Source of the DNA: an uncultured Alphaproteobacteria bacterium | Lineage (GTDB): Bacteria; Pseudomonadota; Alphaproteobacteria; Paracaedibacterales; CAITNM01 | Direction of reading: 5' to 3' | Assembly (NCBI GenBank): GCA_903874955.1 | Contig: CAIQTY010000051.1 | Span: 2,686-66,685 of the forward strand | DNA length: 64,000 nt | Shown: positions 29,561 through 33,019 of the stretch, piece after piece | Position numbering within the stretch: position 1 is the stretch's first letter | Layout of the letters: every line of letters begins with the position of its first letter | Program-made: the position numbers and the translations under genes | The notes under the pieces: model-generated | Seen by the model: the letters and a program-made list of their open reading frames with translations, nothing else | Database searches by the model: none | What the model was told of the DNA's origin: nothing

Positions 29561-32500
29561 ATGCATAACGTGCAATATCCTTCTCGCTCTGGTTCCGATG
29601 ATTTTAAGCAATTAAAAATAATTCGGGGAGTATCACTTTCTCCTAGGGAGATCGATGTTCTGGCTTGCCTGCTTAGCGGCAAGGCAATGAAATCGATTGG
29701 GACTCTTTTATCAACTTCCCCTCGAACCGTTGAAACCCATATGCGGTCTATCATGCTTAAATTCGGATGTGGTTCGCGCGAGAAAGTTATTGAGTTCGCC
29801 GAAAAGTCTCTGCAGTTTTCGTCTTTAAAAAACCACTATACGCTATTATTGCGGGAGTCTGCTTTTAAAAAAACCCTGGAAAAAATCGCTGGTTTTACTA
29901 AAAAAAATCCGGCAGCTTCTTTTGTTATTTATGGAGCGCAACAACAGTCGCCTTTTTTGCAAGAGCTTGCAGGTTTTTGTAAAACCGCCGGTCTTGCCAT
30001 TACGGTTACCTATAAAACACCGGCATCATCCCTCTCCGTAGTGGAACTTACGCCAGAGGTGGCAGTGATTTGCAGACAAGAAGGTAGCTTAAATACTCCG
30101 CTACTATTTGTGTCTAATGAATCGGTTTTCGCTTCTGATCTTTTACCAAAGATTAACAATATTGATTTTGTTGATTTTTCCCTTGCGCAAGATTCCACCC
30201 TAAGTAACGCTGAACATTTTTACGGAGCAACATTTGAGGTCTTAAAAAAAATCCTACCCGAAACCCCTGTGGATTCAATTTCAGCTGATTTTTTGGATCA
30301 TCACAATCGAAGTCCATCGACAGTTTTAAAACGTGATTTTTCCGAAAGTATACCGGATGCAAAAGAACGTTCTCCGATTTCGTTGAAGTTAAGTTTTTTA
30401 CCTCGATTAAGGATAGGAGTTTTAGTATTATACATTCTTTTAATCGCTATCGTATATGGATTAAGTCAATACCATTCCAAACAAGATAATCTCGTTAGGT
30501 CTGATTTCGTGCTACCCCATAAAAGTGCTCTGCTTGAGAGAACAAATTTATTATCAAAGATTGAATCTTGTTTTAACACTCAAGAATCTGGTATTAGAAA
30601 TGTCGCTTTAGTTGGCATAGGTGGCGCAGGAAAGACGACTTTATCAAGAATTTACGCACGTACCCACAAATTTCAAGTGATGTGGGAAATCAATTCAGAA
30701 ACAAAAGATCACTTGTTAAATTCTTTTAATGAATTAGCGTCTTTACTAGCAAAATCTAAAGAGCAACGAGAAGAACTCCATCAGATTCAAAGCATCATCA
30801 ATATTAAGCTCAAAGAGAAGCAGCTCCTTGCATTTGTAAAAAGTCGTTTGAAAGAGATTTCAGATTGGTTGTTGATTTACGATAATGTGGACAGTTTTGC
30901 GGACATGAAATCCTATTTTCCCGATGACCCTGAAGTTTGGGGAAATGGCAGAGTAATGATTACAACACGAGATTCCAACATTGCCAACACAAACCAGATA
31001 AGGGCAGAAAATATCGTCAGGCTTGAAGAATTAAGCGCAACTGAAGCCCTTACGTTTTTTTGCAAAATCCTTTACGACCAGCCCGTTGAAAAGTTACCCG
31101 TATTACAGCGAGAGAGAGTATCCCTGCTTTTAAAGAATATTCCTTGCTTTCCTCTAGATATCGCAGCAGCGGCGTACCACATAAAAGATACAGATATCAG
31201 TGTGGAACAATACCTCAAGACAATAAGCACGCCAGCCAATCAAGACTTTGAAGAATTTCAGCAACGTTTGTTTAAGTACTCCATTGACTATGGATTTAGC
31301 AGGTATAAGCTACTAACGCTTTCTTTTGAAAAAATCCTTGAAGAAAATACTGAATTTCAGGAGTTATTATTACTGCTGATTTTATTTGATTCTCAAGACA
31401 TTCCTAAAGACCTTTTGTATGCATACAAACCAGCACATGTCGTAGATACTTTTATTCGAGTTCTGAAAAAACATTCTTTAATAACAACCAGACAACACAA
31501 ATTCGAAAATACCTCCATTTCCACGATTTCATTACACCGGGAAACGCAAAACACCGGGAGAAATTTTCTCCTTAAAGAAATAGACAATAATGCGGCTAAA
31601 ACCATCAATAAAATTGTAACGCAAGCATTAACTTATAGTGAGAACTGTATTAATAGAAATTTCCACCAAGGAATTCTCTTTTTGCCTCATTTACAAGAAT
31701 TGTCGAAGAGTCTTTTAAAAGCAGTTAAGCACCTCCCTTCTTTAAAACCTAATATACCAAAAATTTATTATGCTATTGGCAATACACATTTTAGGTGCAC
31801 GCGCAATTTAATTTTAGCTAAGGACTATTTCATCCAAGCTTTTAATTCTCATATTGATGGAGGAAAAGATTTGGATAGTTTTAGGATAAAACTTCTTTTA
31901 AATCGGCTTACAACTATTTGTAATGATCTAGAACAACCCGATGAAGCAATTTTTTATGCCAAAGAATTCCTAAAACAAAAAGAAGGCCACGATCCACTAA
32001 AAATTGCCAATCTATATGCCCTAGCAAGAGCCTACAATTATAAAAACGATTTTCATGTGTCAAAGATGTACTATGAAAAAGCCTTAAAAATACTCCATAC
32101 CTTTAAAGAAACAAATGGCTCTAGCTTTGAAGCAGAATTAAAAACTTCTCTAGGATTTTCTTTACTTGACTTTGAGTCTGAGATCTATGCTTCCTTAGGC
32201 TGGCTGTATAGTACAACTTTCATTGCATTAGAAAAAGCACAACCAGCATTCGGTTATTTGAAAAAAGCCCTTAAATTAATAAATGCTGAAAAAAGCGTTA
32301 TAGGACAACCTAAAAACAAGGTAATATCAAGTTCTATAGCAAGAATTAGACTAGATATTGGAGACACATACTGTCGTGCTGGTCTTTACGATCAAGCCGA
32401 AAGTGAGGGTTTTAAAGAAGCGGAGTACATCATTGATCATCGTCTTGATGATTGTCCGCACAAACTTTTAAAGGTTTATATTCAAGTAGGTATGAGCGAA

Positions 32501-33019
32501 ATTTACTTAAGAAGAGGACAATTAAATCAAGCTAAATTCACTATCGAAAAAACCTTAAGGGCTGCTGAAAAAATTGCTGGAGAAAATAATGCTATAGATT
32601 TCTCACTGCTAATTTTCTTGATTGAGACAAATATAAGATTAGGTGAATTAGAAGAAGCCTATAGAAATTGCCAAAAAGTATTTACCATGAATATTATGTC
32701 AAAAACGAATTATACTTCGATTTTGTATCTAACGACTTTCTACTTCGCAGCAGTCATAAAGCTTAAACAAAATGACTATTCAAAAGCTTCTAAACACTTT
32801 GAGGAATTTTTCAAACTAATGGACACGTTTTGTCGTAATTTTTTTGACCCACAAGACTATAATTCATTAAAAGCAAAAGGAGTTTTTGAGTTTTACCCTT
32901 CTGTGAGTCTAGAAAAATCTAGGAAATACCTGGAACATGCCGAAGAACTCTACGCAAAAATTCATGGCAAACAACACCCTTTTGTGAAAGGTTTTGTTAT
33001 TCTAACTAAAAACGACTAA
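29561..33019 (+). CDS. LuxR/GerE-HTH / predicted TM / NB-ARC / TPR protein
   Basis: GerE-type HTH (LSPREIDVLACLLSGKAMKSIGTLLSTSPRTVETHMRSIMLKFG, aa ~27-70). Hydrophobic segment IGVLVLYILLIAIVYGL (aa ~284-302). NB-ARC P-loop VGIGGAGKTTLS, Walker B WLLIYDNVD, and VMITTRD. TPR-like repeats occupy the last ~450 aa. Confidence 0.75.
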   Translation: MHNVQYPSRSGSDDFKQLKIIRGVSLSPREIDVLACLLSGKAMKSIGTLLSTSPRTVETHMRSIMLKFGCGSREKVIEFAEKSLQFSSLKNHYTLLLRESAFKKTLEKIAGFTKKNPAASFVIYGAQQQSPFLQELAGFCKTAGLAITVTYKTPASSLSVVELTPEVAVICRQEGSLNTPLLFVSNESVFASDLLPKINNIDFVDFSLAQDSTLSNAEHFYGATFEVLKKILPETPVDSISADFLDHHNRSPSTVLKRDFSESIPDAKERSPISLKLSFLPRLRIGVLVLYILLIAIVYGLSQYHSKQDNLVRSDFVLPHKSALLERTNLLSKIESCFNTQESGIRNVALVGIGGAGKTTLSRIYARTHKFQVMWEINSETKDHLLNSFNELASLLAKSKEQREELHQIQSIINIKLKEKQLLAFVKSRLKEISDWLLIYDNVDSFADMKSYFPDDPEVWGNGRVMITTRDSNIANTNQIRAENIVRLEELSATEALTFFCKILYDQPVEKLPVLQRERVSLLLKNIPCFPLDIAAAAYHIKDTDISVEQYLKTISTPANQDFEEFQQRLFKYSIDYGFSRYKLLTLSFEKILEENTEFQELLLLLILFDSQDIPKDLLYAYKPAHVVDTFIRVLKKHSLITTRQHKFENTSISTISLHRETQNTGRNFLLKEIDNNAAKTINKIVTQALTYSENCINRNFHQGILFLPHLQELSKSLLKAVKHLPSLKPNIPKIYYAIGNTHFRCTRNLILAKDYFIQAFNSHIDGGKDLDSFRIKLLLNRLTTICNDLEQPDEAIFYAKEFLKQKEGHDPLKIANLYALARAYNYKNDFHVSKMYYEKALKILHTFKETNGSSFEAELKTSLGFSLLDFESEIYASLGWLYSTTFIALEKAQPAFGYLKKALKLINAEKSVIGQPKNKVISSSIARIRLDIGDTYCRAGLYDQAESEGFKEAEYIIDHRLDDCPHKLLKVYIQVGMSEIYLRRGQLNQAKFTIEKTLRAAEKIAGENNAIDFSLLIFLIETNIRLGELEEAYRNCQKVFTMNIMSKTNYTSILYLTTFYFAAVIKLKQNDYSKASKHFEEFFKLMDTFCRNFFDPQDYNSLKAKGVFEFYPSVSLEKSRKYLEHAEELYAKIHGKQHPFVKGFVILTKND

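Follow-up and report, generated by a model that had tools for sequence, protein, structure and literature searches.

The window analysed here is a stretch of 64,000 nucleotides from an uncultured alphaproteobacterium of the order Paracaedibacterales (GenBank assembly GCA_903874955.1, contig CAIQTY010000051.1, positions 2,686 to 66,685 of the forward strand), and the subject is a single gene at 29561-33019 on its plus strand. The gene encodes a protein in which a LuxR/GerE-type helix-turn-helix (HTH), an alpha/beta domain, one predicted transmembrane (TM) helix, an NB-ARC nucleotide-binding domain (NBD) and an array of tetratricopeptide repeats (TPRs) follow one another from the N-terminus (Table 1). 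An earlier reading of the letters alone, called the sequence-only reading below, had proposed a ToxR-style one-component regulator carrying a STAND nucleoside triphosphatase (NTPase) on the far side of the membrane. The open reading frame (ORF) was unbroken and was identical in contigs of three independent freshwater metagenome studies over the ORF parts that they covered; the single difference among those contigs lay in the intergenic region, outside the ORF. An assembly artefact is excluded as the source of the sequence. No RNA runs containing the gene were found, and no selection signal could be drawn from the matching DNA contigs, since these were identical. The genome is 1.74 Mb in size and 99% complete.

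Table 1. Features of the gene and of the intergenic region before it. Positions are those of the window; aa, residues of the encoded protein; pLDDT, predicted local distance difference test.
Feature	Position	Strand	Basis
56-aa divergent mini-ORF, basic N-terminus and hydrophobic leader	29178..29348	-	homologue in locus L027
Candidate cis-regulatory block, diverged copy of the family box	29438..29511		upstream alignment, k-mers
Whole gene, LuxR HTH / alpha-beta domain / TM / NB-ARC / TPR, 1152 aa	29561..33019	+	ORF list, Pfam
LuxR/GerE-type HTH, aa 25-80	29633..29800	+	Pfam GerE, Foldseek, domain divergence
Long linker helix, aa 86-113	29816..29899	+	AlphaFold2 models, pLDDT ~90
Family-specific alpha/beta domain, aa ~116-262	29906..30346	+	AlphaFold2 model, domain profile
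Disordered basic linker, aa 263-282, K/R cluster at its end before the TM helix	30347..30406	+	pLDDT ~30
Single predicted transmembrane helix, aa 283-302, LRIGVLVLYILLIAIVYGLS	30407..30466	+	hydrophobicity scales, conserved position, AlphaFold2
Juxtamembrane linker, aa 303-340, (I/V)RSD(L/F)xxP...LLxR motif leading into NB-ARC	30467..30580	+	family alignments
NB-ARC nucleotide-binding domain, aa 341-520	30581..31120	+	Pfam NB-ARC, motif conservation, structural matches
ARC / winged-helix part of NB-ARC, aa 521-700, FPLD 530-533, MHD-type His659	31121..31660	+	invariant residues
TPR array, aa 701-1152, presumed ligand sensor	31661..33016	+	Pfam TPR_12, TPR_MalT; model

Profile searches recovered each of the named domains, as the sequence-only reading had described them. 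Pfam GerE matched residues 25-80 (E = 1.2e-13, 50.9 bits against a cut-off of 23.5) and Pfam NB-ARC residues 342-516 (E = 2e-10, 40.8 bits, cut-off 23.5). Matches to TPR_12 (53 bits) and TPR_MalT spanned residues ~780-1080, the TPR_MalT match being weak (24.9 bits, below its cut-off of 45), and AlphaFold2 modelled the array as all-helical repeats. The HTH is of the LuxR/GerE four-helix type (PF00196), and its model superposed on the corresponding domains of VqmA, DegU, NarL and GerE with a root-mean-square deviation of 0.5-0.9 Å over 57 residues (Foldseek). Among the NCBIfam models, FixJ and MalT matched the HTH only (MalT with 25.2 bits against a cut-off of 537), and NF040586, the FxSxx-COOH system TPR protein, gave a partial match over residues 320-689 with 100.5 bits, below its 300-bit equivalog cut-off. 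The antiphage defence models of PADLOC gave marginal matches only (VakA, 22 bits; a CARF-HTH model, 16.7 bits). The alpha/beta domain was modelled with strands at residues 120-125, 146-150, 167-185 and 202-205 and with flanking helices. No significant match to this domain (residues ~116-262) was obtained in the PDB, in Pfam or by a fold search with the whole module; hints of a TIR domain stayed below threshold (SARM1 TIR at E = 1.2; TIR_2 in 1 of 40 members), and in a profile search the domain was essentially limited to the family described below.

By profile, motifs and fold, the NTPase belongs to the NB-ARC clade of the STAND NTPases (PF00931). Walker A (GIGGAGKTT) occupies residues 352-360 (nucleotides 30614-30640), Walker B (LLIYDN) residues 437-442 and sensor-1 (TTR) residues 468-470, and a GxP-like motif is present. 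The three motifs on which the sequence-only reading relied (GIGGAGKTT, LLIYDNVD and ITTRD) fall on invariant or nearly invariant columns of the family. In an alignment of 46 members, G352, G355, G357, K358 and T359 of Walker A were invariant, as were P531, L532 and D533 of the FPLD motif and the MHD-type H659; D441 of Walker B was kept in 41 of the 46 and R470 of sensor-1 in 40. The closest solved folds for the NB-ARC core were those of the ZAR1, Sr35 and NRC2/3/4 resistosomes (Foldseek E values from 8e-9 to 1e-6). Judged by the conserved residues, the nucleotide switch is under selection and working. Because the switch is intact, the paradox raised in the sequence-only reading, that of an ATP-using domain outside the membrane, is a real one.

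Relatives of the protein were numerous. Searched by word index, the N-terminal 340 residues gave 16 proteins, and a pattern scan with one genome per species gave 63 loci (designated L with a number), nearly all of them in metagenome-assembled genomes (MAGs) labelled Alphaproteobacteria, Holosporales, Paracaedibacteraceae or Rickettsiales. Named carriers were Ca. Paracaedibacter symbiosus, Ca. Odyssella thessalonicensis, Caedibacter sp. and Ca. Finniella. Save for a few odd labels, the family was limited to protist endosymbionts of the Holosporales type, a group in which the sequence-only reading had suggested looking for the same domain order. Within the order of the source genome, matches were found in 33 of 62 genomes and 13 of 20 genera, with up to 16 matches per genome, and the distribution was patchy even inside the genus (7 of 14 genomes, the source genome counted). 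With a profile of the middle (alpha/beta) domain, 704 representatives of clusters at 50% identity were retrieved, of which 422 lay below 1e-10; the domain lay at residues ~111-285 in nearly all of the top 150 representatives. The best 120 matches to the NB-ARC core all fell within the same family. The database labels found for these proteins were 'tetratricopeptide repeat protein', 'HTH luxR-type domain-containing protein' and 'CsgD family regulator', and our literature search found no paper on this architecture or on Holosporales combined with NB-ARC.

The homologues were all HTH-first with an NTPase of the NB-ARC clade and are not of the LAL/MalT type, in agreement with the contrast that the sequence-only reading drew to such proteins. 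Mean pairwise identity within the family was highest for the HTH (53%), followed by the NBD (47%), the TPRs (30%) and the TM segment (15%). The faster divergence of the TPRs than of the NTPase, together with the patchy, multi-copy distribution, is as expected of diversifying sensors. Four loci (L019, L027, L045 and L047) keep the HTH, TM and NB-ARC and lack the middle domain, which suggests that HTH-TM-STAND is the functional core. In the juxtamembrane linker of the family alignment, R327 was invariant and P319 and L325 nearly so.

The segment on which the proposed topology turns is the sole strongly hydrophobic 19-mer of the protein (residues 283-301, Kyte-Doolittle 2.49, Hessa sum -1.1 kcal/mol); every other segment scored at most 1.6 on the Kyte-Doolittle scale. 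Its Eisenberg mean hydrophobicity was 0.71 with a hydrophobic moment of 0.19, and the family as a whole gave 0.80 and 0.11, with Hessa sums at or below 0 in most members. By the Eisenberg scales the family segment is transmembrane and not amphipathic. Two sets of relatives were examined. The first consisted of the fetched loci plus the first matches, restricted to proteins with enough sequence upstream of the P-loop; in 67 tested proteins a hydrophobic core of 18-25 residues (mean 20.6) ended 54 ± 5.5 residues before the P-loop, and 5 tested proteins had no such core. Of the 67 fetched relatives with a testable upstream stretch, 62 had the core. The second set was retrieved with the middle-domain profile alone and is hence independent of the TM and NTPase. 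Here the core was found in 94 of 102 full-length representatives, and in 89 of those 94 it was the only hydrophobic segment. Overall, a core 54-58 residues before the P-loop was kept in 92-95% of relatives. Because identity in the segment is so low compared with the HTH and NBD, it is hydrophobicity that is conserved here and not sequence.

AlphaFold2 models built from family alignments had a mean pLDDT of 82.9 for residues 1-314 and 82.7 at full length. In both, the helix (280/282-307/313) stood free and packed against no domain, and the linkers around it were of low confidence (pLDDT ~30 at 250-282, with a dip below 50 at 305-308). Taking position, hydrophobicity and models together, the segment is a real TM helix rather than a buried one, in line with the apparently membrane-spanning arrangement of the sequence-only reading.

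Orientation was predicted from the flanking charges. In the window's protein the N-side flank KERSPISLKLSFLPR holds 4 K/R, and in relatives the helix is typically preceded directly by a basic cluster, for example KKRKK or RRKKQRRK. In the first set, the 15-residue flanks contained a mean of 4.12 K+R on the N side and 2.24 on the C side, with N exceeding C in 53 of 67 proteins (Wilcoxon p = 2e-10), and the net flank charge was +3.3 versus +0.5. The second set gave 3.82 versus 2.51 K+R, N exceeding C in 65 proteins and C exceeding N in 8 (p = 1e-10). No signal peptide was found ahead of the 280-residue N-terminal module. This module without a signal peptide, together with the K/R bias, leads to the prediction of N-in, C-out, which would place the HTH in the cytoplasm and the NB-ARC/TPR part in the periplasm. 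The charge bias thus points to the far side of the membrane that the sequence-only reading had proposed for the nucleotide switch.

Relatives in the same NB-ARC clade that lack the HTH module gave evidence on sidedness that does not depend on the positive-inside rule. Three of them (L052, L075 and L076) begin with an N-terminal signal anchor after K/R, followed by NB-ARC/TPR, and a fourth (L056) carries a canonical cleavable signal peptide (LLPCSFA|SH) ahead of NB-ARC/TPR. The only other NB-ARC protein in the source genome, the TIR neighbour of the gene, also starts with a signal-like leader. Three different N-terminal solutions are therefore predicted to converge on the far side of the inner membrane for this NB-ARC clade.

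The helix could instead be something other than a constitutive span, namely a monotopic anchor or a latent effector helix that inserts after STAND oligomerisation, with NB-ARC and TPRs in the cytoplasm, where ATP is certain and no paradox arises. It would then be likened to the N-terminal helices of plant CNL resistosomes and to the TM effectors of bacterial antiphage NLR-like proteins. We consider this unlikely. The resistosomes that are the closest solved folds do have N-terminal helices that insert into membranes on activation, the TM-less members L012 and L073 show that the module can be soluble, and the patchy, multi-copy spread resembles that of conflict systems. However, a segment of such uniform hydrophobicity would be expected to be captured co-translationally, its ~20 residues are too short for a hairpin, and AlphaFold2 packs it against no domain. 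The K/R clusters on its N side are typical stop-transfer or positive-inside signals, and the relative with a cleavable signal peptide cannot hold its NB-ARC in the cytoplasm.

The other end of the protein was approached through the DNA upstream of the family genes. K-mers of the CCCTTAG type were found upstream of 12 of 46 family genes and of 5 of 357 neighbour genes (p = 5e-9), and the aligned upstream regions showed a block TATCCTGGRAATA-CCCCTAAGGA-N5-CTAAGGGGAAAATCCCTTAG. The palindrome TAGGGGAAAWTCCCTTA was present before 9 of 54 family genes, at distances of 102-163 bp, and before 3 of 352 neighbour genes (p = 1e-6; 0.17 expected from shuffles), and across the 748 kb of fetched loci the exact palindrome occurred only upstream of family genes. 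Its shape is as expected of a dimeric LuxR-type operator. Taken with the HTH as the most conserved domain, the box suggests that the protein acts on bacterial DNA and regulates its own gene, and this in turn speaks for an HTH in the cytoplasm. In the window a corresponding block consists of TATCCGCAGAAT, CCCTTAGG (29464-71), CCCCTAG (29479-85), CTTAAGG (29495-501) and GCTAGGG (29505-11); both TATCC..AAT and CTTAGGTAAAA are also found at the orthologous locus L027. The exact family palindrome had 0 copies in the source genome, and the best match with 2 mismatches lay inside an ORF. For the window itself, the candidate box is thus weakly indicated.

A loose direct repeat, CYWRGG-N5-8-CYWRGG, was also considered as a regulatory element and was dropped, as its enrichment was confounded by a dispersed CCTAGG-hairpin repeat in the genome. 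This repeat, AGTCTT/AGTTTT-CCTAGG(G)-N6-8-(C)CCTAGG-ATCC, occurs in at least 25 places on many contigs of the source genome outside the window (for example C1:10156, C1:10558, C2:13254, C3:28951, C18:34148, C18:34362, C38:8631 and C46:21013) and has the form of a hairpin like those of repetitive extragenic palindromes or miniature inverted-repeat transposable elements. Its arms resemble half-sites of the family's upstream box.

A periplasmic nucleotide switch would need nucleotide in the periplasm. The source genome encodes a plastid/parasite-type ATP/ADP translocase (TLC, PF03219; 573 bits). Among high-quality genomes of the order, 49 of 49 have this translocase, and it was missing from each of 14 control genomes; it was present in 43 of the 45 genomes that hold the LuxR-TM-NB-ARC gene. 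The two exceptions are a 5.5-Mb bin labelled 'Flavobacteriales' (L036) and a MAG of unknown completeness. The family contig in the former has the same TM, flank and P-loop ORF features as the alphaproteobacterial locus L032, and it is probably a binning contaminant. The family locus L006, in a 1.4-Mb MAG labelled Hyphomicrobiales, is accompanied by TLC; this MAG is probably a mislabelled endosymbiont. In such symbionts, translocases of this kind take up ATP from the host in return for bacterial ADP (PMC4198247). Since the exchange takes place across the inner membrane, both ATP and ADP must be present in the periplasm. Host ATP in the periplasm plausibly answers the chief objection to a nucleotide switch there, in just those lineages that have the family, and the correlation between family and translocase is a matter of feasibility and not of proof.

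We favour, with a probability of about 0.5, a bitopic inner-membrane, ToxR-like one-component regulator driven by an extracytoplasmic NLR-type switch. From the features above we infer its actual topology, the use of nucleotide outside the membrane, activation by oligomerisation, a ligand and autoregulation. The LuxR-type HTH and the alpha/beta domain would lie in the cytoplasm, with the HTH bound to DNA of the bacterium itself, probably dimeric at the 19-bp palindromic box; one TM helix would cross the membrane with its N-terminus inside, and NB-ARC and TPRs would face the periplasm. Binding of a ligand to the TPRs would free the NB-ARC domain from an ADP-locked state, and exchange of ATP for ADP would lead to NB-ARC oligomerisation, as in other STAND proteins. 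Oligomerisation would gather the TM helices and HTH modules, so that DNA is bound and transcription is turned on. This would be ToxR/CadC logic with a MalT/AfsR-like, NLR-type switch. The ATP outside the cytoplasm would be that of the host, since the bacteria live inside eukaryotic cells and have the ATP/ADP translocase. That NB-ARC and TPRs are truly periplasmic, and so form the first extracytoplasmic STAND/NLR-type switch, loaded with host ATP/ADP and linking host ligands, possibly the adenylate energy charge, to transcription, is a claim that we advance tentatively and at somewhat less than even odds.

Several points weigh against the bitopic regulator. Its topology is read from hydrophobicity scales, from the positive-inside rule and from the confidence of the AlphaFold2 models, and K/R is not scarce in the C-side flank (~2.2-2.5 per 15 residues); the bias shows clearly only when the two flanks are compared and in net charge. 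Cysteine is less frequent on the C side (0.74%) than on the N side (1.71%), with C-side depletion in 45 of 50 proteins; this weakly supports a periplasmic C side, and it may just reflect TPR composition. Cysteine parity as a marker of the periplasm was rejected, since the bias to even numbers was absent (23 of 50). TM-less members, though rare (L012 and L073, plus 3-8 of the 102 representatives), exist, so that NB-ARC and TPRs can presumably function as a cytoplasmic module as well. The periplasm is conventionally held to be devoid of ATP, and we know of no P-loop STAND NTPase that acts there. The co-occurrence with TLC is confounded by phylogeny, since the whole order carries TLC. The window's palindrome is a degenerate copy: it differs from the family form by 3 mismatches, a level at which the genome contains 20 matches in all. 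The intergenic region of the window yielded neither a sigma-70-like promoter nor a strong palindrome. Finally, all-against-all ORF clustering within 6 kb of the 63 loci found no generally conserved partner or target gene.

The same topology could also serve signalling by regulated proteolysis, in which activation of the outer NB-ARC/TPR part would make the juxtamembrane or TM region accessible to site-1 and site-2 proteases and so release the soluble HTH-plus-alpha/beta module, as in membrane-tethered transcription factors. We regard this as quite improbable. The disordered linkers on both sides of the TM helix would suit it, and a subtilase gene (33050-35503) lies immediately downstream in convergent orientation; a conserved protease partner was not found among the neighbours of the family. 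Short proteins made of the HTH and the middle domain are relevant here. The source genome has a stand-alone paralogue of this kind (C36:24004-24783; L002 1471-2328), which has 285 residues and lacks the TM and NB-ARC, and which shows that the module can be soluble. However, in this paralogue invariant residues of the HTH are replaced (R29 to E, T56 to M) and the GerE score of 19.1 bits falls short of the cut-off of 23.5; the protein appears to be either a decaying fragment or a soluble decoy. Most of the short HTH-plus-middle proteins in the database resemble contig-end fragments. In addition, regulators of the ToxR and CadC type are established to work while tethered to the membrane.

The gene is divergent from a TIR_2 / NB-ARC / DUF7779 gene (25717..29088, minus strand) across 472 bp. 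The sequence-only reading had noted this arrangement, which is confirmed; the regulatory pairing that it implied was not conserved in relatives. The NCBIfam model AfsR gave a weak match to this neighbouring NB-ARC gene and none to the 29561-33019 protein. The only recurrent neighbour of the family was a divergent ORF of 198 residues just upstream in 7 of 63 loci (for example L055 7175-7771, minus strand), which had no Pfam match. The divergent mini-ORF of Table 1 has a 48-residue homologue in L027 (1291-1437, minus strand), in the same orientation and ~210 bp away, with 44% identity over 39 residues (E = 4e-5), and possibly encodes a small exported peptide. Mini-ORFs as a family-wide peptide-ligand cassette were rejected, since they were found in 6 of 53 cases against 34 of 334 controls (p = 0.48), the pair being limited to the window and L027.

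The surrounding island contains further proteins with leaders. The two TIR proteins encoded at 25717-29088 and 24484-25395, both on the minus strand, start with leader-like hydrophobic segments, and the latter, of 303 residues, also has a C-terminal hydrophobic helix; the 'cytosolic-type' TIR domains next to the gene are thus predicted to be exported too. The subtilase (Peptidase_S8) encoded downstream on the minus strand has 817 residues with a long, unassigned C-terminal extension. A gene at 35718-37946 (plus strand) encodes a leader-bearing Sel1-repeat protein with a YoeB-toxin domain at its end.

Such a neighbourhood of leader-bearing, eukaryote-like proteins (TIR, TIR-NB-ARC and the Sel1-YoeB fusion), and the richness of the host cytosol in ATP, would suit an exported effector. 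The protein would then be delivered by a secretion system and inserted by its TM helix in a host membrane, with NB-ARC and TPRs facing the host cytosol. This is very improbable. An N-terminal export signal is absent, and with a segment so hydrophobic the protein would be caught in the inner membrane of the bacterium, the TM segments of translocated effectors being typically milder. The best-conserved domain is a bacterial LuxR HTH with a matching palindromic box in the bacteria's own promoters, and on any host membrane either the HTH or the ATPase would be stranded on one side.

If the bitopic regulator with a periplasmic switch is real, hundreds of proteins would carry an NB-ARC domain outside the inner membrane, which would overturn the rule that there are no nucleotide-driven switches in the periplasm. 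An intracellular lifestyle on host ATP would then alter what envelope proteins can do, and the family would be a new class of receptor with which protist endosymbionts read their host. Holosporales-type endosymbionts are relatives of the lineage that is discussed for mitochondrial origins. On a conservative reading, the proteins still form a large family of regulators for which no describing paper was found.

The layout predicted for the protein is that of ToxR, CadC and TcpP, in which a DNA-binding domain at the N-terminus lies in the cytoplasm and one TM helix joins it to a sensor outside, and the protein would likewise control transcription from the membrane without a phosphorelay; a single TM segment does lie between its N-terminal DNA-binding domain and its C-terminal sensor. 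There is no sequence relationship between them. The DNA-binding domain of ToxR, CadC and TcpP is an OmpR-type winged helix, whereas that of the present family is a LuxR/GerE four-helix HTH, and their periplasmic domains are small and nucleotide-independent, whereas here an NB-ARC ATPase with TPRs makes up 850 residues.

HTH-first STAND regulators are already known in AfsR (large SARPs, Streptomyces) and GutR (Bacillus subtilis), in which an N-terminal DNA-binding domain is followed by an NB-ARC-type NTPase and then by TPRs, and NB-ARC followed by TPRs is also the order found here. Neither AfsR nor GutR has a TM helix, both being soluble, whereas the present family has an extra family-specific alpha/beta domain and a conserved TM segment before the NTPase. 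AfsR further differs in its OmpR-type SARP domain and BTAD; the window's protein had no Trans_reg_C or BTAD matches, and its domain is GerE. The MalT/LAL proteins likewise couple a STAND NTPase to a helical-repeat sensor and a LuxR-type HTH, and their activation takes a ligand and ATP-driven oligomerisation. They are soluble, with a C-terminal HTH and an NTPase of the MalT clade, in contrast to the N-terminal HTH and NB-ARC clade of the present family.

To our knowledge, the STAND/NLR switches of animal and plant immunity, of antiphage defence and of MalT/AfsR all act in ATP-containing cytosol. With the plant CNL resistosomes (ZAR1, Sr35, NRC2/3/4) and Apaf-1-type proteins, the present family shares the NB-ARC core fold, Walker A and B, the sensor-1 TTR, the GxP-like motif and the MHD-type His. 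Those proteins are eukaryotic cytosolic immune receptors with leucine-rich repeat sensors and coiled-coil or TIR effectors, and unlike the family described here they have neither a DNA-binding domain nor a constitutive TM helix.

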